Origin: a virus
Taxonomy: Duplodnaviria > Caudoviricetes
Length of the DNA stretch: 64,000 nucleotides
Reading direction: 5' to 3' (one strand)
IMG/VR virus record: IMGVR_UViG_3300045391_005708
Span: 16,759-80,758 of that record
This document shows positions 3,131 through 38,462 of this stretch, piece after piece. The notes beneath the pieces were generated by a model, which was given only the letters and a program-made list of their open reading frames with translations, was not told the origin of the DNA and made no database searches. Position 1 is the stretch's first letter. Every line of letters begins with the position of its first letter. Position numbers and translations under genes: made by a program.

Positions 3131-3131
3131 G

Positions 3132-3617: not shown

Positions 3618-3753
3618 TGTGCCGCCCTCCCGGTCCGCACTCCAGGACCTTCCTGTCGTGCCAGTCCCTCCAGGAGAATCCTACCCAGAGGCCCACGGGG
3701 ACGCCCACCAGGAAGCCGAGCAGGTTGAACGCGACCGACTCGAAGCACACCGC

Positions 3754-3984: not shown

Positions 3985-4033
3985 GGCCCCGGCCTCCTCT
4001 CCTCGTGTGCCGCAAAGTCTACCGCCCCGGGGC

Positions 4034-4804
4034 TCAGCGGCGCCGGTGCCGGGGCGCCCTGACCTCGAAGGAGCCCTCGCACAGGAAGTGGTCGGAGGCG
4101 AGCGCGAACTCGCTGTCGTCCAGGACGTCGAAGGACGCGCCGCGCACGCGGCCGTCCCCGTTGTAGGAGGCGATCACGTCGATCGACCCGTGGCCGGTGT
4201 CCTGCCAGTCGCCGAGTTCGTCGGCGAGGCTGGTGAACGGGGCGCCCAGGAACGTGTCGAACTCCCGGTCGGGGATGTTCTGGTCGCCGCCGTAGAAGCA
4301 CAGGTCGGTGCCGCGGCCGAACTCCCGGCCGACCTCCCCGACCTTGGCCGCGATTCGCGTGTTGTCGCGGAGGAACCTCCGGTGCGCGGCGTCCCCGCCG
4401 GGTCGGCCCTCGGTCAGGTAGTGGCTCACGAGGACGGTGAGGTCGCTCTGCACGAGTGGCGAGTGGCCGGTCACGCGCAGGACGCCGCGGTCGGCGAACC
4501 GCCCGGCCACGCCGTCCACTACCTTGTACCACTCCTCCTCCACCGGGCCCTCGAACAGGTCCCGGCGGTGGCAGACCCACACGTCGCCCGCGCGGCCCTT
4601 GCGGAACCGCAGGCCGTGGTCCTGGTCGACCGTCGCGAGGGCCTTCCCGAGGACGGACTGGGGTCCCGCCTCGGTGCCGGTGAGCCACCGCCAGCCGCGC
4701 TTCTCGGCGCGGGCGGCCAGGCGCTTCGCGTCGGCGGTCTGCTGGGGCTGGGTGTCCGAGAACTGGCCGGACGAGTGGGCCACGTCCAGGCGGACGGCGG
4801 TCAC
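4034..4804 (-). CDS. endonuclease/exonuclease/phosphatase (EEP) family hydrolase
   Basis: GTG 4804 overlaps holin stop (GTGA); GTEA, SHYL, GGDQN, IDVI and SDH motifs in EEP order. Confidence 0.8.
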   Translation of the reverse strand: MTAVRLDVAHSSGQFSDTQPQQTADAKRLAARAEKRGWRWLTGTEAGPQSVLGKALATVDQDHGLRFRKGRAGDVWVCHRRDLFEGPVEEEWYKVVDGVAGRFADRGVLRVTGHSPLVQSDLTVLVSHYLTEGRPGGDAAHRRFLRDNTRIAAKVGEVGREFGRGTDLCFYGGDQNIPDREFDTFLGAPFTSLADELGDWQDTGHGSIDVIASYNGDGRVRGASFDVLDDSEFALASDHFLCEGSFEVRAPRHRRR

Positions 4805-24568: not shown

Positions 24569-24614
24569 GCCCGGCACATACACCAGCGGCTCTGTCTGTT
24601 CCGTATCATACCCC
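24569..24614 (-). promoter_or_regulatory. late promoter and conserved 23-bp leader upstream of major capsid
   Basis: GGGG-TATGAT (24605-24614) then AGCCGCTGGTGTATGTGCCGGGC (24569-24591), identical to 28210-28232. Confidence 0.7.
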
Positions 24615-27600
24615 GGCCGCGGCCGAGGCCCTGCGCGCGAACCTGCCGGTCCGCAGCCCGCGCCGCCCGAGCCACTGCCGCACGTACATGCGGGTGGCGA
24701 ACGGCGGGGGCTCGGTGGAGCCCTGGAGGCTCTGCTCCAGCGCCCCCAGGTGGTTGAACATGTCGTCCAGCGCCGTGCCGACCGCGTTGGCCGCCTCGTC
24801 GCTGAACTCGCCGTTGTCGGCGGCCGCCATGAGAGTGCCCTCCAGGTTGGTGAGCCCGCTCTTGGCGGAGTCCAGGTCCCGCTTGTCGTAGTTGCCCTCG
24901 TCGACCCCGGAGGTCAGGGCGTCCAGGGCGTCCCTGAAGTTGCCCAGGTCCTGCCCGATCTTGTCGGAGGTCGTCGGGTCGACCTCGCCCTCCGTCGCGT
25001 CCATGAGCGTCTGCTCCAACTTGGACGCGGTGTCGGAGGACTGCCTGGCCAGCCTCTGCTGCTGGCTTCCCTCGCCCGGCGGGTTGGCGTCGACCGGGGG
25101 CGGCCCGGGCCTGCTCGGGGGAGACTCCCCGGCCGCGGGCGGCAGGCCCCCGCCCTGGCCGCGGGCGTCGGCCACGGCCCTCGACGCGGGGGTGCCCTTG
25201 GAGATCGCGGACGACGCCGCCTTCCTCTCCTCGGGGCTCATGCTCTCCCACTCCGCCTGGCTCACGCCGTCCGGCGCCTTCCCGGCGTCGGCCGCCCCGC
25301 CGCCGCCGGGCGCCGCCTCGGCCGGGGCGTCGCCGACGCCCTTGACGTAGATGTCGTTGTCGCCCCCGCCGAGCATCGTCTCCGGGTCGTCCAGGCCGTC
25401 GCCGACCTTGTAGGGGAACGTGTTCTCGTCCAGGCCGGGGCCGATCTCGGTGATGCGCCACCCGCCCTCGGCCGACGAGTCCTTGACGAAGTTGACGTTC
25501 AGGGGTTCCTGGCCGGTGACGACCTCCGTGCCCTCGGGCAGCGCGTTCAGGACCGCCTGGGCCTGGTCGTCGTGGTTCTGACTGTCGCCCGCCATCTCGT
25601 TGGGGTCCTGGACCCATCCGGTCTTGACCACGTGGTCCGCCACGGCGGGGTCGAGCCCCGCCTTCCCCAGCGCGTCCGCCAGGCCCGGGCCCGAGTCGGG
25701 GGTCTTGGGCGCGTCGCCGCCGGAGATGCCGTGCTCCAGAGCGTCGATGAGTCCCTGGGCCGCCTCCCGGTCCTTCGGGTTGGTGAGGTACCCGGCCGCG
25801 TTCTTGAGTCGGCTGACGGCCTCCTGGCGCACCTGGTCCGAGGTCTTGCCTCCTTCGGGGCCGAGGGCGCGCTCGTTGGACACGTCGGCCAGGATGTCCT
25901 CGAACGGCTGGGGGTCCACGCTCGGGGAGAGGTCGTCGTCGATGAGCGTCTGGAGCCCGCCCTCGACCTCCCCGACCCCCATGTCGTACTGGTTCTCGTC
26001 CTCCCCCGTGCCCTTGGGCGCGTCGCCGACGACGCCCTTGTCGCCGCCGCCCACGTCCCCGGCGTCCTTGCCCGCCGGTCCCTCCGCGTCGGCGCCGGGC
26101 AGGTCGCCGCCCGGGCCGCCGATGTCCCCCTGGCCCAGGAGGGACAGGTCGCTGTTCTTCACGGTGTCGACGGCGCCCCGCGCGGAGTCCAACTTGGCCC
26201 CGATGTCCGAGGCCGTCTTCTCGTCCAGGGCGCCGCTGTCGGCGAGGTCCTGGAGTTGGGCCTCGGTCTTCGACAGGGCCTCGTCGGCCGCGTTGGCGGC
26301 CGCCTTGGCGGCGTTTCCGTCGCCCCCGCGGAGCGAGTCGGAGGCGTCCTCTGCGGCCGTGACCGCGTCCTCGACGGACGACCCGATCGCGGACGCCTTG
26401 TCGCTGTCGACGCTGGCCGAGTCGAACGCGCTCATGAGGGCGGACTCCAGGTCCTTGACCCCCGAGTCGGGCATGTCGACCCACTGCCCGGCGTCGGGGT
26501 TGCCCTTCGGCACGCGCCACTGGTCGGGGTTGTAGGCGAGGGTCCCGAGGCCCCTCACGTACTCCCGGGTGCGGCGGACCTTGGCCCACGCCGCGGCCCG
26601 CTCCACCCGCGCCGCCAGGGCGGCCGCAGCCTCGCGGCGGTCCATCTCGCGGAAGCGCTCGCGCAGGGCGAGCAGGGAGTCCTCGTCCGAGAGGTCGACG
26701 GTCGTCCTGACCGGCGCCATGACCATGCCGCTGGCCACCAGGCTCTCGATCCCGCCGGACGCGACCAGGGCGCGGGTGCGGGGCACGGGGAAGCCCGGCA
26801 CGTTGACGCACAGGGCGCCGACGAGTTCGAGGCGGCCCTGGACCTTGCGCCAGTCGCCCGAGACGGGGGCGGCCCGGAGCGCCACCAGGTCGGCGTCCGG
26901 CCGGGCCGCCCCCGCGACCCAGATGCCGTGGGAGTCCTCACCGGCCACCACGTCGGCCCCGGCCAGGCCGGTGTGCTCGTAGTGGTAGATCGCGTCGGTG
27001 CTCGACAGCCGCTGGCCCGCGTGCAGGGTGTTCATGGTGATCTTGCCGGTCGCGACCTCGCCCTTGTCGGTGCGGGTCAGGCCGGTGCGGAAGTACGCGT
27101 AGTTGCTGGGCGAGGACGGCGGGCTCGTGCAGACGCCGTGGCCCTCCGGGCTGGCGATGTGGCACGTGCCCCAGAGGGCGATGTGGCCGTACACCCGGCC
27201 GTCGTCCTCCACGGTGAGGCCGGTCGGCTCGCCCAGGCCCGGGTTGGCGAACCACTCCCTGCGGGGGAGCGCCGGGGCGGCGCTGGCCGTCAGGCCGAAG
27301 TCCTCGGACTCCGCGGCGGTCGCGTGGGCGCGGGCCTTCTTCTCCTCCCACTCGGCCACGTCGGAGCACGCCTGGGCGCGGCTGGCCGCGTTGACCTGCT
27401 GGACCCCGGGGAAGTTCACGTCGCCGGTCGCGCACATCTTCTTGACGACGTTGACGGAGGTCGCGATCGCGTGGCTCTCGTCCATGCCCTTCTCCATCAG
27501 GTGCTTGTGGATGCGCTTGATGTAGCCGGGCAGGCCGCCCACGTCCTCGACCCAGTTGAACTCGTCGCTGGCCAGCGTGTCCACGTCATAGAGGTCCAGG

Positions 27601-28184
27601 TCGAACTGCTCCGGCTGGCTCGTGGCGATGCGGGCTCCCTCGAACGCCGGGATCGCGACCTGGGTGGCGGCGCGGACGCGGCCCTCCAGGATCTTCATGC
27701 TCATGTTGCCGGGCTCGTCCGGCTCCTCGACGAGGATGTCGTCCAGGTCCATCGACACGCCGGGGGTCAGGTCCTCGTCCACCTGGCGGTACGCCTCGCG
27801 GCCGTACTCGCTGCCCAGGTCGCTGGAGCCGGAGCCCCAGATGACCGTGGCGTCCTTGAACGACTCGGGCATCGGGTCCTTGCCGTTCCTGGCCAGGCGC
27901 TCGTTGGCCTCGTCGTAGTCGATGCGCTCGATGTCCTCGACCTTGCCGACGACGACGGCGCCGTCGTGGGCGCCCACGTCCTTCTCGACCCAGCGCAGCG
28001 GGATCGGCAGGGAGTCCCAGCGCAGCGCGCCCTTCTCGATGTACCGGCCGTCGCCGGTCGCCATGCCCTCCAGGCCGATCGGCCCCTCCCAGTGCGCCTT
28101 CTGGGTGCCGGTCGTCTCGGGCACCACGTCGGCGTCCGCCGCCGCGAGGCGGCCGTGCTGGCAGGGCAGGCACTCCGTGGTCAT
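24606..28184 (-). CDS. capsid maturation protease with inserted domain and long C-terminal extension (about 1192 aa)
   Basis: ATG 28184; GLEGMATGDGR..LPIPLRW..HDGA.VVG; GRVYGHIALWGTCH; SGDWR; LCVNVPGFPV. Confidence 0.85.
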   Translation of the reverse strand: MTTECLPCQHGRLAAADADVVPETTGTQKAHWEGPIGLEGMATGDGRYIEKGALRWDSLPIPLRWVEKDVGAHDGAVVVGKVEDIERIDYDEANERLARNGKDPMPESFKDATVIWGSGSSDLGSEYGREAYRQVDEDLTPGVSMDLDDILVEEPDEPGNMSMKILEGRVRAATQVAIPAFEGARIATSQPEQFDLDLYDVDTLASDEFNWVEDVGGLPGYIKRIHKHLMEKGMDESHAIATSVNVVKKMCATGDVNFPGVQQVNAASRAQACSDVAEWEEKKARAHATAAESEDFGLTASAAPALPRREWFANPGLGEPTGLTVEDDGRVYGHIALWGTCHIASPEGHGVCTSPPSSPSNYAYFRTGLTRTDKGEVATGKITMNTLHAGQRLSSTDAIYHYEHTGLAGADVVAGEDSHGIWVAGAARPDADLVALRAAPVSGDWRKVQGRLELVGALCVNVPGFPVPRTRALVASGGIESLVASGMVMAPVRTTVDLSDEDSLLALRERFREMDRREAAAALAARVERAAAWAKVRRTREYVRGLGTLAYNPDQWRVPKGNPDAGQWVDMPDSGVKDLESALMSAFDSASVDSDKASAIGSSVEDAVTAAEDASDSLRGGDGNAAKAAANAADEALSKTEAQLQDLADSGALDEKTASDIGAKLDSARGAVDTVKNSDLSLLGQGDIGGPGGDLPGADAEGPAGKDAGDVGGGDKGVVGDAPKGTGEDENQYDMGVGEVEGGLQTLIDDDLSPSVDPQPFEDILADVSNERALGPEGGKTSDQVRQEAVSRLKNAAGYLTNPKDREAAQGLIDALEHGISGGDAPKTPDSGPGLADALGKAGLDPAVADHVVKTGWVQDPNEMAGDSQNHDDQAQAVLNALPEGTEVVTGQEPLNVNFVKDSSAEGGWRITEIGPGLDENTFPYKVGDGLDDPETMLGGGDNDIYVKGVGDAPAEAAPGGGGAADAGKAPDGVSQAEWESMSPEERKAASSAISKGTPASRAVADARGQGGGLPPAAGESPPSRPGPPPVDANPPGEGSQQQRLARQSSDTASKLEQTLMDATEGEVDPTTSDKIGQDLGNFRDALDALTSGVDEGNYDKRDLDSAKSGLTNLEGTLMAAADNGEFSDEAANAVGTALDDMFNHLGALEQSLQGSTEPPPFATRMYVRQWLGRRGLRTGRFARRASAAAGV

Positions 28185-28209
28185 GTGCGGGGTCCTCTCG
28201 TCGCAGGAG

Positions 28210-28250
28210 GCCCGGCACATACACCAGCGGCTACGCGCCCATCATACCCC
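28210..28250 (-). promoter_or_regulatory. late promoter and conserved 23-bp leader upstream of protease
   Basis: GGGG-TATGAT at 28241-28250, second copy of the 23-mer at 28210-28232. Confidence 0.7.
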
Positions 28251-28264: not shown

Positions 28265-28495
28265 TCAGGAGCCGACGTCCTCTGTCTGGTACAGGTGCTG
28301 CAGGAAGTCGCTCGGCGTACCGGCGTCGTCCCACTGAAGGTCCACCTGCCCCCCGCGGTCCGCGATGTCCCGCATCTCCTGGACCAGGGTGTCGTAGAGG
28401 GCGCCCTCCTCGTCGCCCTGGACGACGGCCTCCTTGGGCTTGCCGAGTGAGGCCGCCCGGGCCAGCGCGTCCACCCTGTCGGTCGCCACGGTCAC
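28265..28495 (-). CDS. small acidic protein (76 aa), candidate antitoxin/immunity for the zeta-like domain
   Basis: GTG 28495 overlaps the stop of the zeta-domain gene (GTGA); acidic helical sequence. Confidence 0.6.
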   Translation of the reverse strand: MTVATDRVDALARAASLGKPKEAVVQGDEEGALYDTLVQEMRDIADRGGQVDLQWDDAGTPSDFLQHLYQTEDVGS

Positions 28496-31251
28496 TTCCC
28501 TCTCCCTTCCCCCAGCGCCCTGAAGGCGTCGTACTTGGCCTGGTCCGCCACGACCAGCCTCCCCCCGACGTTTCGCGCGAGGAGCGTCGGCGGCTTGGTC
28601 GTGGTGTCGTACAGTTCGAAGCCGTCGAAGCGCGGCGCGAGGTCCGGCACGATGCTGGCCACCGACCTGTGCGTCTCCTCCAGGTAGGCGGGCGGGATGA
28701 ACCTCCCCGTCTTCTCGCCCCTGGCCTGCGCCCTGGCGAGCGCCTCCTCGATCGGCACGGTCGCGTAGATCCCGCGCGTCGTGTAGCCAGCCTCCCGCGC
28801 CTCGTCCAACTTCCCGCCCATCTTCTCGGCCGAGTGGTCCCCGGTCCCGTCCAGCACCACGTCCAGGCCTCGCGCGATCGCGGCCTGCCGGAGCCGCATC
28901 GCGATCATGGACGACTCCTCGTGCACGTAGGCCGCCGCGCCCGGGTCCTTGCGGGCCAGGCCCTCCTGGTACTCGGGGATGTCGCCCTTGATGTCGTCGG
29001 CGTTGATGAAGACGGCGCTCTCCGGCGAGGGGAAGTTCCCCGGGTCGGAGTTGACGATCGTGCTCTTCCCGGCCGCCGGGCCGCCGCCCATGAAGGTGAA
29101 GGTCTTCTCGCCGGAGGGGTTGGGGCGCACGTCCCCGAGGTACTTGGCGACGATCCTGTCGTGCAGGGCCTGTCGCTCCGGGGAGAGGTGGCCGTCCGGG
29201 GTGATGTACTTGGCGACGGACCAGGCCGGGTCGACCTCGCCCAGGTGGACCCGCGACCCGACGTCCCCCTCGCCCCCGGCGCCCACGTCCCCGCGCGAGT
29301 CCGCGCCCGGGTCGTACAGGGTCCAGTCGGCGTCGGCCAGGCTCTCCAGGTCGTCCGCGGCCTGGGTGCCGCGCAGGGCGTCGGCGGCCGCGCGGAGCGG
29401 CGCCGGGTCGTCGCCGGGCTCCCACGATGCCGCGGCGTCGGCCACGTCCTCGGGCAGGTCCAGGCCGCCGACGATCTTGCCCGGGCTGTCGACCCAGCGG
29501 CCGGACAGGCCGCCGTTGCCCTTGGGGACGCGGAGTTCGCCCTCCCACGGCGCGCCGGAGGCCGCCACGGAGTCCGGCTGTCCGGTCAAGGGGAACTCGT
29601 GGCGCTCGTCGCCCCACCACAGCGCGACCGCGTCGAACGGGATGGCCACCACGTCCTGCGCGGCCTCCAGGTCCTCGTCGGCCAGGCCGGGCTCTTCGTC
29701 GCTGCCCCGGTAGCCGACCGTCACGTGGGGCGTGTACTCGGGGTACTTCGTGGCGCCGGAGTCCTGGTACATGCTGTCCAGTTCGCTGTCCACGCTGTCG
29801 CCCCCGCCCAGGGCCTCGAACAGGGCCTGGAGTTCCGGGCTGTCCAGCATCCAGACCTGCGCGCCGGAGTCGCCCAGGGGCTCGACGCCCCTGACGGTCG
29901 CCGCGAACGGCGGGGTGGACCCGGCCACGACCCTGGCGCAGTCGAGGAACAGCGCCTTGCTGGACAGCATCCGCTGGCCGTCCTCGCTGGCGGACGGCTC
30001 GCCGAAGTACGCCAGGGTCGCGTGCTTCTCCTCGGGTCCGATGTAGTGGACCACGGCGTCGTCGTGGGGGATCGCCGCGAACATGATCGAGGGGTCCTCC
30101 GGGTCCGCGCTCGCCCCGCTGGCCAGCGTCTCCGTCCCGGCGGCCGCGTTCTCCAGGCCCTTGATCGCGTCCTGCAGTTGCCTCCTCTGCCCGGGCTCCA
30201 TCTTGTCGGCCCAGCCGTCCAGGAGCCCCTTGACGCTGTTGATGACGCTCTTGACGAGGGCCGCGTCTCCCCCGCCCCCGCCGCCCCCGCCGGGCTGCCC
30301 GGCCCCGGCCGGGGACGACGGGGAGCCCCTGCCCGGCGCGGCCTTCTTGGCCGCCGGGCCGCCCTGCTTGCCTCCCCCGCTGCCGCCCTTGTGTCCCCCG
30401 CCGCCGTGGTGCGGCGCCGCGGCCTGGCCGTTGATGAACGCCTCGGCGTTCTTCTTGATCTTCTCCATGAGGGCCTGGACCTGCGGGCCGGAGAGGTCGG
30501 CCATGAGCGGCCCGAGCGCCTTGAGGATGCCCTCCATGAGCCGCTGCACGCGCTGGGCCTTGCTCAACTTCGGGGGCTTCTTCGCGGGGGCCGCCGGGGC
30601 CTTCTTGGCCGGTGCCTTCTTGCCCGCTCCGCCGCCCGAGCCCTTGGGGATGAATCGCCCGCCCTTCGGCGTCCCGGCGTCGCCGCGCGGGTGGGCGCTC
30701 TCGTCCCAGTTCGGGTCGCCGGTCTTGGTCGGCTTCATCCTGGTCGGGTAGCCCGGCCCCCGGCCCTTCTTGGCCGGGGGGCTGGCCTCGGGGGCCGGGG
30801 GTCGGGCCGTCTCGGGGTCGCCGGGCCGCGAGACGAGCGCCTCGGGGGCGAACAGCCGGAGGAGCGCGTCCTCCTCGCTACCGGCGAAGATGTCGACCAG
30901 GGCGGCCAGGTCCTCCTCGTCGTCCGCCTGGTCGTCCAGGTCCGCGTCGCTGCCGGGGAACCTCGCCCCGACGTACTCGTCCGCCAGCGGGCCGTCCGGC
31001 ACCGCCCAGGGGTCCTCCCCCTCGCGGACGGCCAGGGCGTTGCCCCTGATGTCGGGGGCCGCGTCGTCCGTGTACCACACGAGCCAGATCCCCAGGAACG
31101 TGTTGGGGACCAGGCTCGACGCCTGGACCGTCAGGCCCTCCGTGCCGCGCTGCCCGTCCAGCCACCCCTGGGCCTTCGCGACCGCGGCCTCGGGCGCCAT
31201 GAGCGGCGCCTGCTGGGCCGGGTCGTCCACCATGAGTTCGTCGAGGTCCAT
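28492..31251 (-). CDS. multidomain protein: Imm35/YrhB-like N-terminus, Lys/Ala-rich linker, 2H phosphoesterase, zeta-toxin-type P-loop kinase (919 aa)
   Basis: ATG 31251 overlaps MuF stop; HATL (about 30022) and HVTV (about 29725) 2H motifs; MGGGPAAGKST, INADDIK, VHEESS, VVLDGT zeta motifs. Confidence 0.85.
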   Translation of the reverse strand: MDLDELMVDDPAQQAPLMAPEAAVAKAQGWLDGQRGTEGLTVQASSLVPNTFLGIWLVWYTDDAAPDIRGNALAVREGEDPWAVPDGPLADEYVGARFPGSDADLDDQADDEEDLAALVDIFAGSEEDALLRLFAPEALVSRPGDPETARPPAPEASPPAKKGRGPGYPTRMKPTKTGDPNWDESAHPRGDAGTPKGGRFIPKGSGGGAGKKAPAKKAPAAPAKKPPKLSKAQRVQRLMEGILKALGPLMADLSGPQVQALMEKIKKNAEAFINGQAAAPHHGGGGHKGGSGGGKQGGPAAKKAAPGRGSPSSPAGAGQPGGGGGGGGDAALVKSVINSVKGLLDGWADKMEPGQRRQLQDAIKGLENAAAGTETLASGASADPEDPSIMFAAIPHDDAVVHYIGPEEKHATLAYFGEPSASEDGQRMLSSKALFLDCARVVAGSTPPFAATVRGVEPLGDSGAQVWMLDSPELQALFEALGGGDSVDSELDSMYQDSGATKYPEYTPHVTVGYRGSDEEPGLADEDLEAAQDVVAIPFDAVALWWGDERHEFPLTGQPDSVAASGAPWEGELRVPKGNGGLSGRWVDSPGKIVGGLDLPEDVADAAASWEPGDDPAPLRAAADALRGTQAADDLESLADADWTLYDPGADSRGDVGAGGEGDVGSRVHLGEVDPAWSVAKYITPDGHLSPERQALHDRIVAKYLGDVRPNPSGEKTFTFMGGGPAAGKSTIVNSDPGNFPSPESAVFINADDIKGDIPEYQEGLARKDPGAAAYVHEESSMIAMRLRQAAIARGLDVVLDGTGDHSAEKMGGKLDEAREAGYTTRGIYATVPIEEALARAQARGEKTGRFIPPAYLEETHRSVASIVPDLAPRFDGFELYDTTTKPPTLLARNVGGRLVVADQAKYDAFRALGEGRGK

Positions 31252-34200
31252 CACTTCAGCCTGTTCTCGTCCCGGGGCAGGACCGGCGCGCTCGTCCCGA
31301 CCTGCCTGAACTTCTCCCACTCCGGGTGCGTCTTCAGGTGGGTCAGCGCCTTGGCGGCCTCGGTGTACTCCGCCGACGCCGCGGCCCGGGCCTCGCTTAG
31401 CCGCACCCACTCCGGGTCGTCGGTCCGCGGGGTGAGGGGCTCCCCGGGCAGGCGGCTGTTGTACAGCGCCGTCTCTCGCTTCCTCATCGCCTCGTACAGT
31501 TTGTTGCTCCTGACGGCCGCCTCGCGGCGGCGCGCCTTGGCGGCCGCCAGGGCCTTGCCGAAGTCCGGGTCCAGGCCGTTCACGTCCTGGGTGAACGACG
31601 GCGGGGACAGCATGGCCTCCACGTCCTTGGCCAGCGGCTTGTCGTCGAGGCGCATCAACTCGACGCTCCGCCACCCCATGTCGCCCCAGTAGTCGCCCTC
31701 CGGCGGGGGCTGGACGACGGCGCCGGTCTGGGCGTCGTAGAAGGTGACCGAGCCGTCCTCGTTCCGCTCCCAGTTCCAGATGTGGCCGCTGCTCCGGCCG
31801 GTCCAGTCGGCGTCGATCGTGCCGCGGCTGCCCGGCGGGTAGCGGTCGACGGTCGGGGTCGTCCGGCCGTCGTCAGGGCCGAAGTCCTTCTGCGTCAGCG
31901 CGGCGACGACCCGCTCGTACTTCCCCTTGGCCCTCGTGCCCTTGGGGATCTCGACGCGCTCGCTGCTCGTCCAGGTGACCCCGCGGAACCAGACGCCGTA
32001 CGCGCCGCGCGGGTTGCGGCCGTGGTCGGCGCGCTTGGGGTGCACGTCGAGGCCCCGGCGGCGCAGTTCGTACGCGGCGCTGGCCAGCACGCAGTTGTGG
32101 TTCTTCTGCCCGGCCTGCTCGCGCACGGTGTAGAACTGGCCGACAGCCGCGATCACCTCCTCGGGGTGGGTGGACTCCGGCGGCAGCCCGCCGTACCGGC
32201 CCGCCAGGTCGGCGTGCACGTCGGACTCCGCCTGCATCGTCAGGCGCTGCATCACGGCGTCCAACTCGTCCTTCTTGGCCATGAGGGCGCGGCCGACCGG
32301 GGTCTGCTCGGCGCCCGTGAACCGCAGGCTGCGGAGGGCGGAGCCCCACTTGTTGAGGTCGGAGTTCATCGCCGCGGCCGACATGTCCATGAGGAGCGGG
32401 GCCTGGCTGTAGACCCAGCCCTCGCCGACTGTCTCCCGGCCGGGGTGGTACCGCTGCCAGATCGCCAGGTCCGTGATCGCCGCGGACAGGTCCTCCGGCC
32501 TCTTCGCGGACAGCGCCCGGTTCAGGTGCCGCTCCCCCTCGCCGTCCAGTTGCCACTCGTCCGGCTTGAAGAGGCTGTCCTCCCACGCCTGCCGCACGTC
32601 GATCAGGGCCTCGCTGGTGTCCGGCCAGGGCTTCGGCATCAACTTCGCCGCCACCTTGGCCTTCATCATCGCGTCGTGGAACTTGCCCTCGTCGTTGTAC
32701 TTCAGGCCGAGGAGCGCGCTGTTCAGCAGGCCGGGCATGACGCGGTACTGCTCCTCCTGCTCCGGCGTCAGCGTGGCCTGGTTGCCCTCCGTGGAGTAGT
32801 ACGTCCGCTCGGCGTGGACGCGCTCGACCAACTGCCTCAGCGCCGCCCGCGCCGCCTCCCGCCGGGCCGCCCCGGGCTGCCCCTCCGTCGACGGCAGGAC
32901 GGCGTTCAGCGCGTCGACGTAGCGCGCGTGGGGGCCGGGCGGGGCCTTCGGGGGCAGGGTGGCCCCGGCGTACTTAACGGCGTACGCGGGCACGTCCTCC
33001 TGGGCCAGGTAAGGCGGCCAGTAGCCCAGGCCGTCCTTGAAGTGGTAGGCGCCCCCGACGCTGTTGCAGTAGAGGCCCAGGCTCTCCACGTCCATCGGGC
33101 TGTCGAGGAGGATCACGGGGTCGATCTCGACGTTGCCCGTGTCCTCGTTGCGGAACACGCCCAGGTGGAACTTCTGGTACGGCAGGACCTCGGCGAAGTC
33201 GGCCTTGGCCTTGTCCATCGCGTTGGCGACCTCCACGTCCGAGGACCCGATGGGCACGGTGACCGTCTCGACGCCGGGGCTCTTGGCCGTGATCGCGTAC
33301 TTCAGGGCGTACTCGTCGCTCTCGGGGTCGACGACCTCGCCCGTGTGCGCGTCGATGGTGACGCCGCCCCACTCCTCCTTGACGGCCCTGGCGGCCTTGG
33401 CCTTCAGCAGGCCCCAGCCGCCGCCCTCCAGGCCGGTCGCCGGGGACTGGTTGTCCATGAGGTCCTGGAACTGCGCGGCCCCCTGCCGGTACAGGTCCTC
33501 GTACGTCGCCAGGTCCACCGCGCGGGTGCGCGGCGTGTCGGGGTTGCTCAGCCGGTCGCGCGTCATGGGGACCGGCGGGAAGTCGACCTCGGGCGGCACG
33601 TCCGGCATGGTGTCCGGCGTCGGCGTCTCGTCGATGTCCGGGTTGTCTTCTCCCAGGGGCGGCGGGTCCTCGCCTCCGGGCTCCTCCAGGGCGGCCTTCA
33701 AGCCGTCCACGTCCCACCCGTAGAAGGCGCTCCCCAGCCCCTCGGGGTCCTCGACGATCCCCTTGCGCCGCGTCCACCACGGCGCCGAGGCCGGGGTGGG
33801 CTCCACGTACAGGGCGACCCCGTCGCCCAGGGCCTTGCGCTGCGCCGCCTCCAGGAGCCTGGCCCCGGCCCCCTTCTGGAGGGACCCCAGGTAGTCCAGC
33901 ACGTAGTAGGCGGGGTTCCCGTCCTCGTCGGTCTCGTGCTTGACCAGCCCGGCGGCCCCGCGGAGGTTCCCGCCGTCGTCCAGGTCGGCGACGACCGTGG
34001 CGGCGTCCCCGAAGTCCCTGGCGGCCTCCAGGGCGCGGCGGGTGAACTCCGCGCGGTCGTCCTCGCCCTCGACCGTGGCGGCGAGGCGGGCCGCCTCCGC
34101 CGCGTCGACCTCCCGGGGGCCGGGACCGGCGTTCGACGGGTCGTCCTCGGGCGCGTCCGGCGCGACCTGCTTCAGGGTCCCGTCCTTCTCGAAGCCGTGC

Positions 34201-36392
34201 ACGTCCAGGTCGACCTCGGCGTTCTTCTGGGCCTGCACGTTCACCCAGTCCGCGAACTCCTGGTTGCTGATGCCGGGCACGGGCTGGTAGACGGTCTGCC
34301 GGTCGTGGGCGCCCGGCCCCTTGGTCGCGTAGCCGAGTTCGACGGCGTAGTCCAGGGCGTTGGTCTGGGCGTCCTCCACGATCAGCGCGGGGGTCTTCCC
34401 GTCCTCGCCCTGCGTCCTGGTGTCGTCCCCCAGCCCTCCCAGGTACTCCTCCGCGGCCTGCGCCTCGTCGGCCGTGGGTGCCCTGAAGCCCTCGGGACCC
34501 CTGCCCGGCTCGTCGGGGTGCCGGTCGAGCTCCGAGGGGGCGTCCGCGGGCGCCTTGCGCTGGAAGATCCTGAGGCTCTTGGCCGAGTACGCGGCGTTGG
34601 TCTTCCCGCCGCCGGGCTGGCGGCCCAGGCTGTACGTCCACTCCCCCGCGCCGTCCGGGCTCGCGGCGGTGACGTACCACCACGTCCGCGCCTGCCCCTT
34701 GCCCACGATGTCCCCGACCTGGAGGGGAGGCTCGCCGTCCGCCGGGCGGGCGGGGCTGTAGCGCACGTCCATGCCGGGTTCGAGCCCGGTGGTGTGCGCG
34801 TCCAGGCCCTCGTTCCACGCCTGCTTCTTGGTGAGGTCGGACTCCTGCTCCTGCGTGAGGTCCAGCCCGGCGTCGCGGTCGGACCGGGCCTGGAGTTCCG
34901 CCAGGTACGCGGCCCGCCTGCGGCGCATGGTCGGGGACGGCGCGGTGTGGTGGGAGTTGATCGCCTCGACGGCCTTCAGCAGTTCGCCGGAGGGCCCCTG
35001 CACCAGGGGGTCCTCGCCGACGGGGATGTCTCCGGGGAGGGCGCCGTCCCAGCGGTTCTTCCGCACGCGGCCCGCGGGCGCCGCCCCCACGTCGCTGGAG
35101 CCGTCGAACAGCGTCCAGTCCGTGTCGGCGTACTCGTGGATGCCGTCCGCCGCCTCGCGCAGGGCGTCGGCCACGCTGGGGTCCGCCGACGACGCCGCGT
35201 CCAGGGCCTCGGCGGCCGCGCGGAAGGCGGGAGTCTCTCCCTCGTACGCCTCGCGGTCGTCGGGGTCGATGCCGTCCAGGGCGTCCCGCGCCTCCGCCAC
35301 CGCCGCCTTGGCCGGGTCCTCGCCAGGCAGGCCAGCGAGCAGTTGGTCGAGGTCGTCCAGGTGCTTCCAGGGGGTGAAGGTCCACCGGCCGGAGCGGTCG
35401 CCGTTCCCCCTGGGGATGCGCAGTTGGTCGCGCCACGACTCGCTGGCGAAGGCCGTCGCGGCCGCCGCCAGGGCGTTGTAGTCGGACTCGCGCGCCCCGA
35501 CCACGGTGCACCGGCAGTTGACCGTCTCCCAGGGCGGCGCGGACGGGTCGCCGGGCATCATCAGGAGGGACTGGCCGACCTTGAACGGCCGACCCAGCGG
35601 CACGACCTGGCCGTCCGCGTGCCGGTGCGTCTCGCGGGTCCTGGGGTCCTCGGTGGCCACCCACTCCTTGTAGGCCACGCCCTCCTGCGCGAGCGCCGCG
35701 AGCGCGCCGCTGTTCCAGGCGGCCGTCGACTCAGTGCGGGCGATGCGCGTGGCCCGGGCCTTCCAGTAGCCCTCGTCCGCCCTGATCCTGTCGACCGCCT
35801 CGGCCCGCAGGGCCTGCCAGACCTTGACCTCCGGGTCGTGCCTGTGCGCGTGCGTCCTGGCCGGGGTGCCGGTCGGCCCGAGCGGGTCCAGGATCCTGTC
35901 GATCTGGTCCTCGGCGTACCGCCTCTGCCGCTCCCAGTACCGCTTGCTGGGCTCCCACCTCAGGCGCTCCGCGATGTCCCGCGCGGCCTGCTCCGTGGAC
36001 CAGCCGCCGAGGGCCGCGTGGCTCTGGGAGGTCCGCACCTGGTCGAACGCCTCCTGGGGGATCTCGGGCAGCGCGTCGCGGCTCAGGCGGTCGCGGACGG
36101 CCGCCAGGTGGAAGGCCATCGCGTCGGCGCGCGGGCTGACCTTCCTCTCCCCTCCCCAGGTGGTCGAGAACGCGTCCTCCCAGGTGCGGCGGATCTCCTC
36201 GACCACGCTGTCCCTGGTGGAGTCGGTCCACCAGCCCAGCATGACGCCGAGGGCCAGGACCGGCTGCGCCTGGTCGGCGCGCCCGGCGCGGACCGCCGCG
36301 AGCACGGCGTCCAGGACCTTCCTCAGGAAGGACCGCGTGTCCTCCTCGACGACCCTCGCCAGGGCCGCCTCGGCGGCGTCACGCCCGTCCAC
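31251..36392 (-). CDS. MuF-like minor capsid protein with polyvalent extension (GNAT, unknown domains, C-terminal papain-fold toxin)
   Basis: RIARTESTAAWN..KEWVATEDPRTRETH..DGQ..PGDP..ETVNCRC (MuF); YLGSLQKGAGARLL (GNAT); NCVLASAAYELRRRG..GHIWNW..FYDAQTG (papain fold). Confidence 0.88.
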   Translation of the reverse strand: MDGRDAAEAALARVVEEDTRSFLRKVLDAVLAAVRAGRADQAQPVLALGVMLGWWTDSTRDSVVEEIRRTWEDAFSTTWGGERKVSPRADAMAFHLAAVRDRLSRDALPEIPQEAFDQVRTSQSHAALGGWSTEQAARDIAERLRWEPSKRYWERQRRYAEDQIDRILDPLGPTGTPARTHAHRHDPEVKVWQALRAEAVDRIRADEGYWKARATRIARTESTAAWNSGALAALAQEGVAYKEWVATEDPRTRETHRHADGQVVPLGRPFKVGQSLLMMPGDPSAPPWETVNCRCTVVGARESDYNALAAAATAFASESWRDQLRIPRGNGDRSGRWTFTPWKHLDDLDQLLAGLPGEDPAKAAVAEARDALDGIDPDDREAYEGETPAFRAAAEALDAASSADPSVADALREAADGIHEYADTDWTLFDGSSDVGAAPAGRVRKNRWDGALPGDIPVGEDPLVQGPSGELLKAVEAINSHHTAPSPTMRRRRAAYLAELQARSDRDAGLDLTQEQESDLTKKQAWNEGLDAHTTGLEPGMDVRYSPARPADGEPPLQVGDIVGKGQARTWWYVTAASPDGAGEWTYSLGRQPGGGKTNAAYSAKSLRIFQRKAPADAPSELDRHPDEPGRGPEGFRAPTADEAQAAEEYLGGLGDDTRTQGEDGKTPALIVEDAQTNALDYAVELGYATKGPGAHDRQTVYQPVPGISNQEFADWVNVQAQKNAEVDLDVHGFEKDGTLKQVAPDAPEDDPSNAGPGPREVDAAEAARLAATVEGEDDRAEFTRRALEAARDFGDAATVVADLDDGGNLRGAAGLVKHETDEDGNPAYYVLDYLGSLQKGAGARLLEAAQRKALGDGVALYVEPTPASAPWWTRRKGIVEDPEGLGSAFYGWDVDGLKAALEEPGGEDPPPLGEDNPDIDETPTPDTMPDVPPEVDFPPVPMTRDRLSNPDTPRTRAVDLATYEDLYRQGAAQFQDLMDNQSPATGLEGGGWGLLKAKAARAVKEEWGGVTIDAHTGEVVDPESDEYALKYAITAKSPGVETVTVPIGSSDVEVANAMDKAKADFAEVLPYQKFHLGVFRNEDTGNVEIDPVILLDSPMDVESLGLYCNSVGGAYHFKDGLGYWPPYLAQEDVPAYAVKYAGATLPPKAPPGPHARYVDALNAVLPSTEGQPGAARREAARAALRQLVERVHAERTYYSTEGNQATLTPEQEEQYRVMPGLLNSALLGLKYNDEGKFHDAMMKAKVAAKLMPKPWPDTSEALIDVRQAWEDSLFKPDEWQLDGEGERHLNRALSAKRPEDLSAAITDLAIWQRYHPGRETVGEGWVYSQAPLLMDMSAAAMNSDLNKWGSALRSLRFTGAEQTPVGRALMAKKDELDAVMQRLTMQAESDVHADLAGRYGGLPPESTHPEEVIAAVGQFYTVREQAGQKNHNCVLASAAYELRRRGLDVHPKRADHGRNPRGAYGVWFRGVTWTSSERVEIPKGTRAKGKYERVVAALTQKDFGPDDGRTTPTVDRYPPGSRGTIDADWTGRSSGHIWNWERNEDGSVTFYDAQTGAVVQPPPEGDYWGDMGWRSVELMRLDDKPLAKDVEAMLSPPSFTQDVNGLDPDFGKALAAAKARRREAAVRSNKLYEAMRKRETALYNSRLPGEPLTPRTDDPEWVRLSEARAAASAEYTEAAKALTHLKTHPEWEKFRQVGTSAPVLPRDENRLK

Positions 36393-36783
36393 TGGCCTGC
36401 TCCGCGAGCCGGGCGGCCAGGACCTCGAACTCGTGCGGCTTGGCCGCGCGCACGACCTCGCGGACGTAGGAGTCCAGCGTCGCCGCGAGGTCGTGGTCCG
36501 CGACGCTGCAGCACCCGTGGTCGGACACGAGCCGCGGCAGCGTGGCCCACGCCCCGGCCAGCGCCGCGTCCAGGGCGGCCGCCGCCTCCTGGGGGAAGAC
36601 CTCGTGCGCCTCGTGGTACCCCTTGCCGGACGCGCGCAGTTGCCCGAAGTACCTGCCGTTGGCCCGCGCCACGCGCTTGCCGACGAGTTCGAGGGCCCGG
36701 ATCACGGCGATGTCGCACGCGGCCGCGAGCACCCGCATGTCCGCCCCGCCCTGGGCCTCGGCCTTCTCCCTGACGGTGCTCAC
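36379..36783 (-). CDS. portal-associated hypothetical protein (134 aa)
   Basis: GTG 36783 overlaps portal stop; VIRALELVGKRV motif. Confidence 0.7.
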   Translation of the reverse strand: MSTVREKAEAQGGADMRVLAAACDIAVIRALELVGKRVARANGRYFGQLRASGKGYHEAHEVFPQEAAAALDAALAGAWATLPRLVSDHGCCSVADHDLAATLDSYVREVVRAAKPHEFEVLAARLAEQASGRA

Positions 36784-38462
36784 ACGGGGCTCCCCGCCTG
36801 GGGCGCGCCCTCCCCGGCCGCGGACGCGGCGGGCGGGGACGCCCCGTTGGTGGACGGCGGGGCGGGCGTCGGGCTGAAGCCGCGGGCGGGCTCCAGCGTG
36901 CCGGGCTCCCGGGCGGACTGCAGCGGCCCGCCCGGGCCGGTCTGCGGGGTCTTGTCGAACAGGGCCAGGACGTAGGACACGATCTCCGGCATGTTGTCGA
37001 TGAGTTGCGGGTTGGCCGACGCGATCTGGAGGGCCGTCTTGACCGCGACCTCGCGAGCGTCCGGCGCGTCCTCCTCGTCGAAGTTCCCCGCCCCGCGCAG
37101 GGCCGCGTCGGAGATGGCCCCGACCTGGTGGAGGGCCGACGCGTCCTCCAGCCGGTTCGGGCGCTGCACCAGGCCGGACGTGTCGAACTTGACCTCGTAG
37201 GACTCCCAGTCCTTGTCGCCCATCTGCCGCTTGATCGGCCGGTAGAAGCCGGTCGTCAGCGCGTCGGCCAGCAGGCCCAGGCGGGGGTCGATGTGGGCGG
37301 ACACCACCTCGTCCCGGACCAGCCACATGCCCCAGTGGTTCGCGTCGCCCATGCCGGACAGGAGTTCCGGCGGCGCGTCCAGGCCGAGGCCCAGGCGCCT
37401 GACGTTGCCCTCCAGGAGTTCGGCGCTGTGCTCGTCGAACGGGGTGCTGAAGGAGTCGAAGCGGATCTTGGAGATCGCGTCCCCGGGGGCGCCCATCAGC
37501 AGGGGCACGAACGCGGCCGCGTTCGAGCGGTCCTCCATCGGGAGGATCATCGCCGCCATGATCGCGTTGAGGACCGGGTTGTCGGAGAACTGCTGCTCCG
37601 CCTGGTTGCCGGGGACCTTGGCCGAGTTGAGGATGTCGTTCGGGAGCCAGTAGACGCCCGCCCCGGCCAGGCGGCTGTCGATCTGCGAGGACTGGTGCTC
37701 GGTCAGGCCGACCAGGGTGCGCAGCACCGGCAGGGCGCGGCGGACGGGGCTGTCCGCGCGCTCCCAGCGGGCCGGGTGCGGGTCCCAGACCTTCTCCACG
37801 TACACCTCGTCGGTGTCGTACTCCTCGCCCGCGACCTCGGTCTTCTTCTTCTTGCGCCTGACCTCCAGCGACGAGTAGACCTGCCAGCGCGTGTTCCCGC
37901 CGGTCGTGCCGCCGTCCGCCTCGTCCTCGTCCGGCTCCTCGCCGTGCGGGCTCAGGCCCTCCAGGGACGGCGCCGCCAACTGGAGCCGGTCGCTCGTCCG
38001 GTCGCTCGGGCGCCTGACCGGCAGGCCGCACAGGAAGCACGCGCCCGCGACGTACACGTTGAGGAACATGCGCTCGACCATCTGCCCCGTGACCAGGGCC
38101 AGGATCGGGTCCTCGTCCTCCGAGTTGTCGACCCGCTCGCCGTCCCGCTCGACGTACATCACGGCCTGGGCCGCGCGGCCGGAGAGCGCGTTGGCGACGT
38201 AGGCCATCTCCGGCACCTGGTCGTACATGGCCCAGCACTCCTCCTGCCAGGCCAGGTCGCCGTCGTCGTCCCGGCGCCGGTCGCGGCGCCTGTCCTCGCG
38301 GCTCGTGACGCGGGTCGCGGCCGCGGTCAGCACGCGCACCCCGACGCCCTCCTGCCAGTCCCCCGCCTCGCGGTCCGCGCTCGTCGGCCCGCCGTACGAC
38401 CAGGCCGAGGGCTGGGCGACGGTCACGCGGGCGCCGCGGCGGCGCTCGAACCAGGTGGGCAC
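36780..38462 (-). CDS. portal protein
   Basis: WQEECWAMYDQVPEM.YVAN; VWDPHP..ADSPVRRALPVL; SRLAGAG; RLGLGLDAPPELL.G..ANHW; follows terminase. Confidence 0.92.
   Translation of the reverse strand: MPTWFERRRGARVTVAQPSAWSYGGPTSADREAGDWQEGVGVRVLTAAATRVTSREDRRRDRRRDDDGDLAWQEECWAMYDQVPEMAYVANALSGRAAQAVMYVERDGERVDNSEDEDPILALVTGQMVERMFLNVYVAGACFLCGLPVRRPSDRTSDRLQLAAPSLEGLSPHGEEPDEDEADGGTTGGNTRWQVYSSLEVRRKKKKTEVAGEEYDTDEVYVEKVWDPHPARWERADSPVRRALPVLRTLVGLTEHQSSQIDSRLAGAGVYWLPNDILNSAKVPGNQAEQQFSDNPVLNAIMAAMILPMEDRSNAAAFVPLLMGAPGDAISKIRFDSFSTPFDEHSAELLEGNVRRLGLGLDAPPELLSGMGDANHWGMWLVRDEVVSAHIDPRLGLLADALTTGFYRPIKRQMGDKDWESYEVKFDTSGLVQRPNRLEDASALHQVGAISDAALRGAGNFDEEDAPDAREVAVKTALQIASANPQLIDNMPEIVSYVLALFDKTPQTGPGGPLQSAREPGTLEPARGFSPTPAPPSTNGASPPAASAAGEGAPQAGSPV

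Follow-up and report, generated by a model that had tools for sequence, protein, structure and literature searches.

Three coupled genes on the minus strand lie within the head-assembly module of a phage genome, between the portal gene and the gene of the head-maturation protease (Table 1). Coordinates refer to the window, the whole stretch of 64,000 nucleotides that was analysed, which is part of an 80,758-bp record. The record is a complete genome of 80.7 kb with high GC content, direct terminal repeats and a completeness of 100% (CheckV). No match to a tyrosine (PF00589) or serine (PF00239) integrase was found across its full length. The phage is probably virulent, and its host is probably a high-GC bacterium.

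A GC3 frame plot places all real genes between 22.7 and 40.7 kb on the minus strand. The stop of gene 1 and the start of gene 2 overlap as TGATG, and the stop of gene 2 and the start of gene 3 overlap as GTGA, which is preceded by a purine-rich ribosome-binding site. The frame plot, the translations and these overlaps confirm the three coupled head genes described in an earlier note on this DNA. The locus is flanked by genes for the terminase, the portal (phrog_776), a head-protease fusion (phrog_18402) and the major head protein (phrog_777). Its position between portal and protease is as that note had it, except that a 128-aa gene separates the portal gene from gene 1; the match of this gene corresponds to the C-terminal end of the portal family phrog_776. 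The true start of the protease fusion is likely near 28184.

Table 1 Features of the three-gene locus and its neighbors, in window coordinates
Feature	Position	Strand	Remarks
Upstream portal gene	36780..38462	-	560 aa; phrog_776, 2e-95
128-aa gene between portal gene and gene 1	36379..36765	-	phrog_776 match 1e-8, profile positions 518-618
Gene 1	31251..36392	-	1713 aa; MuF-type head protein, Tox-PL1 toward C-terminus; GC3 frame plot, Pfam, PHROG head-morphogenesis matches
MuF domain (Phage_Mu_F, PF04233)	35502..35789	-	Gene 1 residues 202-297; E 4e-13, 50.5 bits (cut-off 29.6)
Junction motif LRIPRGNGDRSGRW	35364..35420	-	Just after MuF domain, gene 1 around residue 325; regex scan
Tox-PL1 / Gln_amidase ("Papain fold toxin 1", PF15644)	31722..32096	-	Gene 1 residues 1433-1557; 27.6 bits (cut-off 24.1)
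Tail after papain domain	31254..31721	-	About 155 aa, conserved; alignment A7 with L002-L009
Gene 2	28492..31251	-	919 aa; N-domain, 2H phosphoesterase, zeta-like kinase; start overlaps gene 1 stop
Imm35-like alpha+beta domain, putative Tox-PL1 inhibitor	30922..31212	-	Gene 2 residues about 14-110
Gly/Lys/Ala-rich and helical linker	30127..30864	-	Gene 2 residues about 130-375; contains variant motif HPRGDAGTPKGGRF
2H phosphoesterase (2_5_RNA_ligase2, PF13563)	29605..30024	-	Gene 2 residues 410-549; 37.4 bits (cut-off 27)
Junction motif LRVPKGNGGLSGRW	29476..29532	-	Between 2H and kinase modules, gene 2 around residue 574
Zeta/AvrRxo1-like P-loop kinase domain	28495..29229	-	Gene 2 residues 675-919; Walker A GGGPAAGKS, catalytic Asp in INADD
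Gene 3, putative kinase inhibitor	28265..28495	-	76 aa, acidic, helical; D+E 16, K+R 6
Downstream head-maturation protease fusion	24606..28220	-	Up to 1204 aa; phrog_18402 and phrog_21470

Gene 1 encodes a giant MuF-type protein whose middle region of about 1100 aa carries no domain assignment. Its PF15644 match falls inside the interval of about 31560-32160 that had been proposed for a papain domain, and the corresponding domains of relatives score 25.5-34.3 bits with the same model. The signature NC...H...DxQ, which is catalytic in Tox-PL1 (PMC3482391), is complete and reads NHNC, GHIWNW and YDAQ. In alignment A7, whose members are about 50% identical, the His, Asp and Gln never vary, and all sequences that cover the NC pair contain it. 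The papain-fold assignment stands above the Pfam cut-off, but the domain is not strictly C-terminal as claimed, since the conserved tail follows it; the end of this tail carries the motif G-x-S-[YA]-P-V-L...R-L common to L002-L009. An N-terminal MuF domain combined with a C-terminal toxin domain in the packaging module is the architecture by which MuF polymorphic toxins are recognized (PMC5576092).

Gene 2 combines an N-terminal domain, a linker, a 2H phosphoesterase and a P-loop kinase. In L009, a phage syntenic with this one, the last 170 aa of the 285-aa protein P0008 look similar to the linker by eye. The 2H domain has both of its HxT motifs intact (HATL and HVTV). In L009 this domain is located in gene 1 instead of gene 2, and few of the 108 kinase relatives combine it with the kinase. 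The kinase ends the protein, as had been noted, with a Zeta_toxin match (PF06414) at residues 712-873 (E 3e-25, 89.1 bits) and with both Walker A and the catalytic Asp in place. GGGPAAGKS and Asp78 of the kinase are invariant in 32 relatives, and Asp78 aligns with the second Asp of the IDNDTFK segment of zeta, which we take to be the catalytic Asp of zeta. Against the PDB, the kinase profile matches zeta (1GVN, 1.3e-13), AvrRxo1-ORF1 (4Z8Q, 6.7e-10, end to end over profile positions 2-227) and Pnkp1 (2.7e-6). The segment aligned to EGTGRTT of zeta reads DGTGDHS; with this replacement in the sequence, specificity for UDP-GlcNAc is uncertain, and, given the likeness to AvrRxo1, the substrates may be of NAD type. 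IMG/VR holds 242 relatives of the kinase, the nearest of which carry MuF, portal or head-protease domains in the same protein. A protein with 2H and kinase modules next to one with MuF and Tox-PL1 domains, both amid late virion genes, has the architecture of polyvalent or head-packaged effectors as presented in PMC5512222.

The N-terminal domain of gene 2 had been likened to Imm35/YrhB. The residue strings on which this likeness was based do occur in the translation, and Imm35 is indeed described as the specific partner of Tox-PL1 (Zhang et al. 2012, PMC3482391). The Pfam model of Imm35 (PF15567, cut-off 27.5 bits) gave no match at E<=10 in residues 1-130, in six homologues of the domain or across the complete genome translated in all six frames, and no Pfam family of any kind matched this N-terminus even at E<=10. 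What remains of the likeness is remote. An hhalign comparison (A9 against 13 actinobacterial Imm35 domains) gave a borderline probability of 51% with E 1.5e-4 over 39 columns, and the look-alikes among Atlas predicted structures include two Imm35 clusters with TM 0.58 and 0.50/0.59. The AF2 model consists of one helix and four strands (pLDDT 75.5), and Foldseek found no match to it in the PDB at E<=0.001. Trp56 of the domain is invariant.

The gene neighborhoods point in the same direction as the published association. A HMMER search with residues 1-130 among 1.8 billion representative proteins returned five clusters of small proteins besides gene 2 itself, and one short match inside a long protein. 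The homologues, 32-38% identical, are free proteins of 109-127 aa or form the N-terminus of proteins of 274-285 aa. In all five lineages (L003, L004, L005, L006 and L009/L010) the homologue lies directly 3' of a gene ending in Tox-PL1, an association expected of Imm35; it starts within a few bases of the upstream stop, and the upstream C-terminus scores above the Pfam cut-off for Gln_amidase. The order is MuF, Tox-PL1 and a 127-aa partner in L004, and MuF-2H-Tox-PL1 followed by the 285-aa partner in L009. Because the five lineages form one phage clade with Tox-PL1 domains about 50% identical, shared ancestry contributes to this conserved order. The pairing of the papain domain with the N-domain, as suggested previously, is borne out by adjacency in these lineages but not in two distant Corynebacterium Tox-PL1 loci, whose downstream small ORFs have no detectable likeness to the N-domain. 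Judging from sequence and gene order, the N-domain probably keeps the Tox-PL1 domain switched off.

Gene 3 is the small acidic protein that had been described, coupled to gene 2 through the GTGA overlap. It matches a 76-aa ORF of L014 (BLASTP, E 3e-7), and its family has a core of about 60 residues for which no Pfam family, PHROG function or PDB relative was found. With an iterative HMM seeded by gene 3, a small ORF of the family was detected in 61 of 85 viral kinase loci, sampled from the pool of 242 with the kinase, and was not detected in the other 24. All 61 lie at the 3' end of the kinase gene, and none was found elsewhere among 4811 small ORFs. These loci span 40-75% GC, and in them the kinase is free-standing or joined to MuF, to the XkdF protease or to members of three portal families. 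L009 possesses neither the kinase nor the partner. The gene 3 family is widespread, was previously unannotated and travels with virion-linked zeta-like kinases.

The earlier note had proposed gene 3 as a small antitoxin and pointed to the epsilon proteins that neutralise zeta toxins. The family profile gave no match to epsilon or PezA at E<=10 against PDB sequences, and Foldseek gave none. Sequence searches, fold searches and the downstream position of the gene all rule against an epsilon-type antitoxin. No chain of Arc1 (AvrRxo1-ORF2) appears among the PDB matches of gene 3 by profile or fold, a weak negative because small helical proteins are hard to match. The structure prediction of the complex of kinase and gene 3, which had been suggested as a check, scored 0.80 in three runs, and the best of three controls scored 0.22. 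Of 80 solved complexes 58 attain the mark set for this score, as do 2 of 110 mismatched pairs; these counts apply here only approximately, since own alignments were used for the prediction. The partner is modelled with a pLDDT of at least 76, and contacts agree by at least 86% between runs. In the model gene 3 contacts the P-loop, the catalytic Asp78, the VHEESS and DGTGD segments and the TGRF loop. The model gives a placement and not an affinity, and its kinase side may lean on remembered zeta-epsilon structures. On this model, gene 3 probably holds the kinase off by covering the active site.

The reading that we favor, with moderate confidence, is a head-cargo operon in which each enzyme has its cognate inhibitory partner downstream and the first partner is fused to the second cargo. 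The Tox-PL1 domain in the C-terminal part of the giant MuF protein and the zeta/AvrRxo1-like small-molecule kinase behind the 2H domain would ride on head-assembly proteins, and both enzymes would most likely be packed in the capsid and delivered with the DNA. The Imm35-like domain would be the cognate binding partner of Tox-PL1 and the 76-aa helical protein that of the kinase. Most likely, the partners would keep the enzymes inactive in the producing cell, in the case of the kinase through occlusion of the nucleotide site. Inhibition, packaging, injection and the substrates of the enzymes are what we infer.

In the present lineage, the second cargo protein would have gained the first partner at its N-terminus through a domain shuffle. 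The two-tier arrangement proposed before survives in so far as an immunity-like domain is fused to the carrier of the kinase; the fusion is limited to this phage and a single close relative, so a functional dependency between the tiers is hypothetical. It counts against the favored reading that, unless cleaved off, a partner that is part of a packaged protein would enter the capsid with it. Protection of the producer cell fits better than lysogen immunity because the complete genome has no integrase, and on the same ground "immunity" in the polymorphic-toxin sense, as protection of lysogens, does not fit. Of the broader toxin-immunity interpretation, we retain the two enzyme-partner gene pairs, both of which are conserved elsewhere. 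The identity of gene 3 as epsilon is not retained, and that of the N-domain as Imm35 is reduced to an Imm35-like domain with remote signals.

A possible variant of this reading involves proteolysis. The pattern R-[VIM]-P-[KR]-G-N...G-[RQ]-W is conserved at the junctions listed in Table 1 for genes 1 and 2 and in the protease gene, where a regex scan found WRVPKGNPDAGQW at residue 569 of the fusion, after the protease domain. In L004 the MuF gene is split off, and the separate Tox-PL1 gene, of 1137 aa, also begins with a motif of the LRIPRGNGDRSGRW type. In this variant both inhibitors, the Imm35-like domain and the 76-aa protein, would be carried into the prohead on their enzymes. Cuts at the junctions, made either by the head protease or by Tox-PL1 itself, would release the inhibitors, and the mature virion would inject enzymes that are already armed; the gene 3 family would then be a general and portable off-switch of virion-borne zeta-like kinases in many phage lineages. 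We regard this protease-armed cargo as unlikely.

We hold it quite unlikely that the locus is a classical MuF polymorphic toxin, in which the virion delivers growth-inhibiting toxins to competitors and the downstream genes protect sibling lysogens. A family of MuF toxins with small ORFs behind them has been described (PMC5576092), as has the fusion of Tox-PL1 to MuF with Imm35 as specific partner (PMC3482391), and the catalytic motifs of both enzyme domains are intact. Nevertheless, MuF toxins are reported almost only in temperate phages (PMC5576092) and the present genome is complete without either integrase type, while partners coupled within a late head operon suit stoichiometric neutralisation during assembly and not expression from a prophage. 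The same low probability applies to Tox-PL1 as a releasing peptidase for the multi-module head proteins, with the junction motifs as possible cutting sites and the Imm35-like domain as timing inhibitor or docking site. Such a role for MuF-linked Tox-PL1, with Imm35 as a possible protease inhibitor, was proposed by Zhang et al. (PMC3482391) and the motif at the module junctions agrees with it, but the neighboring gene already encodes a protease dedicated to head maturation and the Pfam name for the Tox-PL1 family is glutamine deamidase. A role of gene 2 in RNA end-healing or as an anti-signal enzyme (2H cyclic phosphodiesterase plus polynucleotide kinase, cf. Trl1 and Pnkp), with gene 3 as a cofactor or an unrelated small head protein, is very improbable: the intact HxT motifs, weak Acb1 matches (0.043 here, 0.0037 in L009) and the Pnkp1 match stand against a kinase profile far better on zeta and AvrRxo1, a 2H domain that rarely accompanies the kinase and sits in gene 1 of L009, and a partner that follows the kinase and not the 2H domain, with a modelled position over the active site of the kinase.

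Head-packaged phage effectors are known mainly from domain architectures, and how poisoning of the producer cell is avoided is rarely addressed. The locus offers two testable pairs of an enzyme and a putative inhibitor, and it shows that an inhibitor-like module can become part of the cargo protein encoded next. The gene 3 family provides a route to annotate hundreds of "hypothetical" small genes beside head genes. If the modelled occlusion of the active site is true, gene 3 would be a compact natural inhibitor of the zeta-like kinase class.

Like the MuF toxins (Jamet et al. 2017, PMC5576092; Zhang et al. 2012, PMC3482391), gene 1 has an N-terminal MuF domain and a C-terminal Tox-PL1 domain with the NC-H-DxQ residues, a cognate module follows immediately downstream, and the locus lies between portal and capsid genes. 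The MuF toxins have a free downstream immunity ORF of less than 150 aa (PMC5576092), whereas here this module is the first 110 or so residues of a 919-aa enzyme-bearing protein and falls below the Pfam model of the Imm35 partner (PMC3482391). They are carried by temperate phages or prophages (PMC5576092), whereas the present genome gave neither a PF00589 nor a PF00239 integrase match, and gene 1 is far longer owing to its unassigned middle region. Fusions of Tox-PL1, 2H and zeta-like kinases to MuF are documented (PMC3482391, PMC5512222), and the latter (Iyer et al. 2017) regards 2H and zeta-like kinase fusions to MuF as likely injected effectors. The polyvalent and MuF- or portal-fused effectors presented there resemble our locus in carrying several unrelated enzyme modules on head-module proteins; that paper appears to describe neither dedicated small partner genes of the kinase nor an inhibitor-like domain fused into cargo, both of which are proposed here.

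Epsilon-zeta and PezAT (1GVN and 2P5T) share with gene 2 the kinase fold, Walker A and the catalytic Asp, and gene 3 is modelled to cover the nucleotide site, as epsilon does. Unlike their antitoxins, gene 3 lies downstream and not upstream, shows no sequence relationship to them and lacks a DNA-binding domain, and the GTGRTT segment of zeta differs from DGTGDHS in the gene 2 kinase. In AvrRxo1:Arc1 of Xanthomonas and relatives (4Z8Q; PMC4938570) a zeta-like kinase is likewise followed by a small neutralising protein (81-98 aa there), and the phage kinase aligns end to end with AvrRxo1-ORF1, with PERxxLH and VHxESS common to both. That pair is a type III effector locus, whereas the present one belongs to a phage head operon, and the gene 3 family has no detectable sequence or fold likeness to Arc1. 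The order with the kinase first and the partner downstream is that of AvrRxo1:Arc1 rather than that of epsilon-zeta.

The head genes of the window lie in one run on the minus strand, which carries every real gene between about 22.7 and 40.7 kb; as spurious ORFs are plentiful at the ~73% G+C of the window, the reading frames were judged from a GC3 frame plot. The order is large terminase, portal, a 128-aa gene, gene 1, gene 2, gene 3, head-protease fusion and major head protein. Gene 1 overlaps gene 2 by TGATG and gene 2 overlaps gene 3 by GTGA, therefore genes 1–3 are translationally coupled. Translations, Pfam matches and overlaps thus bear out the coupled MuF-papain, 2H-zeta and small acidic genes described in the earlier note, whereas its layout of the locus is corrected in three respects: the strand is minus, an additional small gene follows the portal, and a conserved tail of ~155 aa lies behind the papain domain. 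Intact catalytic motifs are present in all three enzyme domains: NC, H and DxQ in Tox-PL1, two HxT in the 2H domain, and Walker A with the catalytic Asp in the kinase.

Features of the head-gene region (window coordinates unless residues are given)
Feature	Position	Strand	Match or remark
Large terminase		-	phrog_38
Portal, 560 aa		-	phrog_776, 2e-95, profile positions 22-515
128-aa gene	36379-36765	-	matches only the last ~100 positions of portal family phrog_776
Gene 1	31251..36392	-	1713 aa
MuF domain	gene 1 residues 202-297		Pfam
Junction motif, gene 1	35364-35420	-	after MuF domain
Possible GNAT-type region	gene 1 residues ~800-870; about 33790-34000	-	sub-threshold ESM Atlas feature hits
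Gln_amidase ('Papain fold toxin 1' = Tox-PL1)	gene 1 residues 1433-1557		Pfam, above curated cut-off
Conserved tail, ~155 aa	31254-31721	-	3' of Tox-PL1 domain
Gene 2	28492..31251	-	919 aa
Variant motif	30690-30730; gene 2 ~residue 187	-	after Imm35-like domain
2H phosphoesterase	gene 2 residues 410-549		Pfam
Junction motif, gene 2	29476-29532	-	after 2H domain
Zeta_toxin	gene 2 residues 712-873		Pfam
Gene 3	28265..28495	-	76 aa; D+E 16, K+R 6
Head-protease fusion, up to 1204 aa	24606-28220	-	phrog_18402, phrog_21470
Junction motif, protease gene	about 26470-26510	-	after protease domain
Major head protein		-	phrog_777

The portal appears to be divided into two genes of 560 and 128 aa, and a 130-aa counterpart of the latter is found in L009, a syntenic phage that has no kinase. 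The longest-ORF start of the protease gene (28220) is probably not the real one, because a better ribosome-binding site precedes the ATG at about 28184. After its protease domain this gene encodes ~650 acidic, Ala/Asp/Gly-rich residues, which may be a fused scaffold. In the sister phage L001 an additional gene of 464 aa (3106-4500), which matches BNR_4 (sialidase-like repeat), is inserted between the gene 3 homologue and the protease gene. The tail of gene 1 also occurs in L002-L009 and shares a G-x-S-[YA]-P-[VI]-L-x(4-5)-R-L motif at the extreme C-terminus, just before the start of the coupled partner. About 1100 residues of gene 1 carry no domain assignment; four slices of gene 1, searched together with gene 3 against Pfam at E ≤ 10, gave nothing useful, and phmmer with whole gene 1 and whole gene 2 found no match among PDB sequences. 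The middle of gene 1 may hold a GNAT-type acetyltransferase, with ESM Atlas feature scores of 0.82-0.84 (below the lead threshold of 0.9) and no Pfam match for the region. A junction motif, [WL]-R-[VIM]-P-[KR]-G-N-x(2-4)-G-[RQ]-W, is conserved in the window and in L001, L002, L004, L009 and L010; it lies at the split between MuF gene and Tox-PL1 gene in L004 and occurs twice in the protease gene of L009. Possibly the motif serves as a signal for cleavage or docking, or marks recombination junctions.

We propose that cognate inhibitors would hold these presumably virion-destined enzymes silent within the producing cell. Two pairs are considered: Tox-PL1 of gene 1 with the N-terminal domain of gene 2 (residues 1–130, N-domain), and the kinase of gene 2 with gene 3. 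The source record (80,758 bp, with direct terminal repeats), of which the window spans bases 16759-80758, is 100% complete according to CheckV and encodes no tyrosine or serine integrase. As the genome lacks integrases and both partners are coupled inside a late head operon, we favor inhibition in the producer cell over lysogen immunity of the kind described by Jamet et al. 2017. The classical arrangement of a MuF toxin with an immunity protein that protects the lysogen, as in that study, remains a rival.

The N-domain has no Pfam match even at E ≤ 10. HMMER, run exhaustively on 1.8 billion representative proteins, detected homologs in five small-protein clusters at 32-38% identity and one short match within a long protein. 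Three of the homologs are free proteins of 109, 111 and 127 aa, whereas the other two have lengths of 274 and 285 aa. In five of five lineages (L003, L004, L005, L006 and L009/L010), which represent a single phage clade, the homolog starts no more than a few bases from the stop of a gene whose C-terminus exceeds the Pfam cut-off for Gln_amidase. L004 has the order MuF (844 aa), a 1137-aa Tox-PL1 protein and the 127-aa partner. L009 shows full synteny with the window, in the order portal, 130-aa gene, 1821-aa MuF-2H-Tox-PL1 protein, 285-aa partner (P0008), 44-aa ORF, protease fusion and capsid gene. By eye, P0008 corresponds to gene 2 residues 1-375; therefore gene 2 would be a P0008-type protein with added 2H and kinase modules. 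The 2H module has thus changed place between gene 1 and gene 2. Identity among lineages is about 50% for the Tox-PL1 domains and about 30% for the partners; a cognate binder is expected to diverge faster. Small ORFs also lie downstream of Tox-PL1 at two distant Corynebacterium loci, but hhalign detected no relation of these to the N-domain (probabilities of 1.7% and 4.6%), and they were rejected as the same partner. The variant motif that follows the Imm35-like domain of gene 2 reads W-D-E-S-A-H-P-R-G-D-A-G-T-P-K-G-G-R-F, its counterpart in P0008 is D-P-N-Q-K-R-D-K-T-G-K-W, and the Gly/Lys/Ala-rich stretch after it in gene 2 looks like a basic low-complexity linker.

Imm35 (PF15567) is an alpha+beta domain with a conserved W, specifically associated with Tox-PL1, possibly a peptidase inhibitor and at times fused to enzymes (Zhang et al. 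2012, PMC3482391). The earlier note gave this association correctly; its by-eye likening of the gene 2 N-terminus to Imm35 receives remote profile and fold signals, but the Pfam Imm35 model has no match in the whole genome or in the six N-domain homologs. Profile-profile comparison of the N-domain family with 13 actinobacterial Imm35 domains gave a probability of 51% and an E-value of 1.5e-4 over 39 columns, comprising the N-terminal helix and the Trp strand. In the ESM Atlas structure search with the N-domain, two Imm35-bearing clusters were among the nearest models, with TM of 0.58 and 0.50/0.59. In an AF2 model of the N-domain (pLDDT 75.5), one helix precedes four strands. In the PDB, Foldseek with this model retrieved nothing at E ≤ 0.001 and the family profile hit only low-complexity or repeat artefacts. 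We thus call the N-domain Imm35-like, membership of Imm35 not being established. Tox-PL1 could also be a releasing peptidase with the Imm35-like domain as its regulator, a role proposed for MuF contexts in PMC3482391, and this reading remains as a less probable rival.

The second pair consists of the kinase and gene 3. Gene 3 has a single close homolog among 5.8 billion proteins, in the sister phage with the same gene 2; tblastn with gene 3 found nothing in 50,697 phage records, and whole gene 2 found no relative in viral contigs. The kinase domain has many relatives of 35-50% identity, nearly all fused to MuF, portal, XkdF-protease, NUDIX or 2H modules, and is encoded on 242 IMG/VR contigs. 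In the 85 kinase loci that we compared, the kinase domain nearly always stands last in its protein, and a small ORF begins at or across the stop of the kinase gene or, if convergent, ends there. An HMM seeded solely with gene 3 and its close homolog converged in four rounds and matched small ORFs in 61 of the 85 loci, all 61 at the 3' end of the kinase gene (53 classed as same-strand neighbors, one further neighbor with a longer start call, seven convergent on the opposite strand), and none of the remaining ~4,750 small ORFs of these loci. The convergent partners (L056, L070, L072, L073, L083, L085, L091) overlap the kinase stop and score 47-58 bits on the family HMM, so that the arrangement is inverted yet adjacent. 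Gene 3 also matches the L014 partner by BLASTP (E 3e-7), where the kinases are 50% identical. In Cyanophage P-SS2 the partner gp033 lies two genes after the kinase-bearing gp030. Partner-positive loci range from 40 to 75% G+C, and their kinases sit on three portal families, MuF or XkdF protease, or stand alone (~300 aa). The family is absent from L009. Since the family goes with the kinase on different carriers and at different GC contents, and is missing from this kinase-less relative, we rejected the view of a mere conserved small head gene of one phage lineage.

We modeled the kinase domain with gene 3 using a 32-row alignment for each. In three runs the complex scored 0.80, whereas the best of three controls reached 0.22, so this pair passed a complex prediction of the kind suggested in the earlier note. 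Of 80 solved complexes 58 attain the score mark, as do 2 of 110 mismatched pairs; these counts are rough here since the alignments were our own. Partner pLDDT was at least 76 and contact agreement between runs at least 86%. The confident interface joins the active-site face of the kinase (P-loop, catalytic Asp78, VHEESS and DGTGD segments, TGRF loop), a side on which the model may lean on known zeta-epsilon structures, to helix 2 and the conserved G-x-x-[VI]-[DE]-[LI]-P-x-[DE] stretch of gene 3. The model supports a putative binding by occlusion. A third rival, in which 2H and kinase together form an RNA-healing or anti-signal enzyme, is weakened, because 2H is seldom found with the kinase and the presence of the partner depends on the kinase alone.

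The gene 3 family has no Pfam family, PHROG function, named database entry or solved relative; against the PDB, Foldseek with the gene 3 model yielded nothing at E ≤ 0.001 and the family profile only low-complexity or repeat artefacts. Neither search detected a relation of the family to epsilon, PezA or Arc1. Among solved structures the kinase family profile finds zeta (1GVN; 1.3e-13, a partial-length match), AvrRxo1-ORF1 (4Z8Q; 6.7e-10, an end-to-end alignment with common PERxxLH and VHxESS motifs), PezT (6e-9) and Pnkp1 (2.7e-6). Candidate substrates are UDP-GlcNAc, NAD or another compound. AvrRxo1:Arc1 provides the precedent of a small neutralizer encoded downstream of a zeta-like kinase (PMC4938570), the same arrangement as kinase and gene 3. 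MuF toxins, polyvalent head effectors, the Tox-PL1-Imm35 pairing, MuF-fused zeta-like kinases and the AvrRxo1:Arc1 module are already known. New, as far as the searchable literature shows, are the widespread small-partner family of head-linked zeta-like kinases and the fusion of an inhibitor-like module to the cargo protein that follows, which joins both pairs within one operon.
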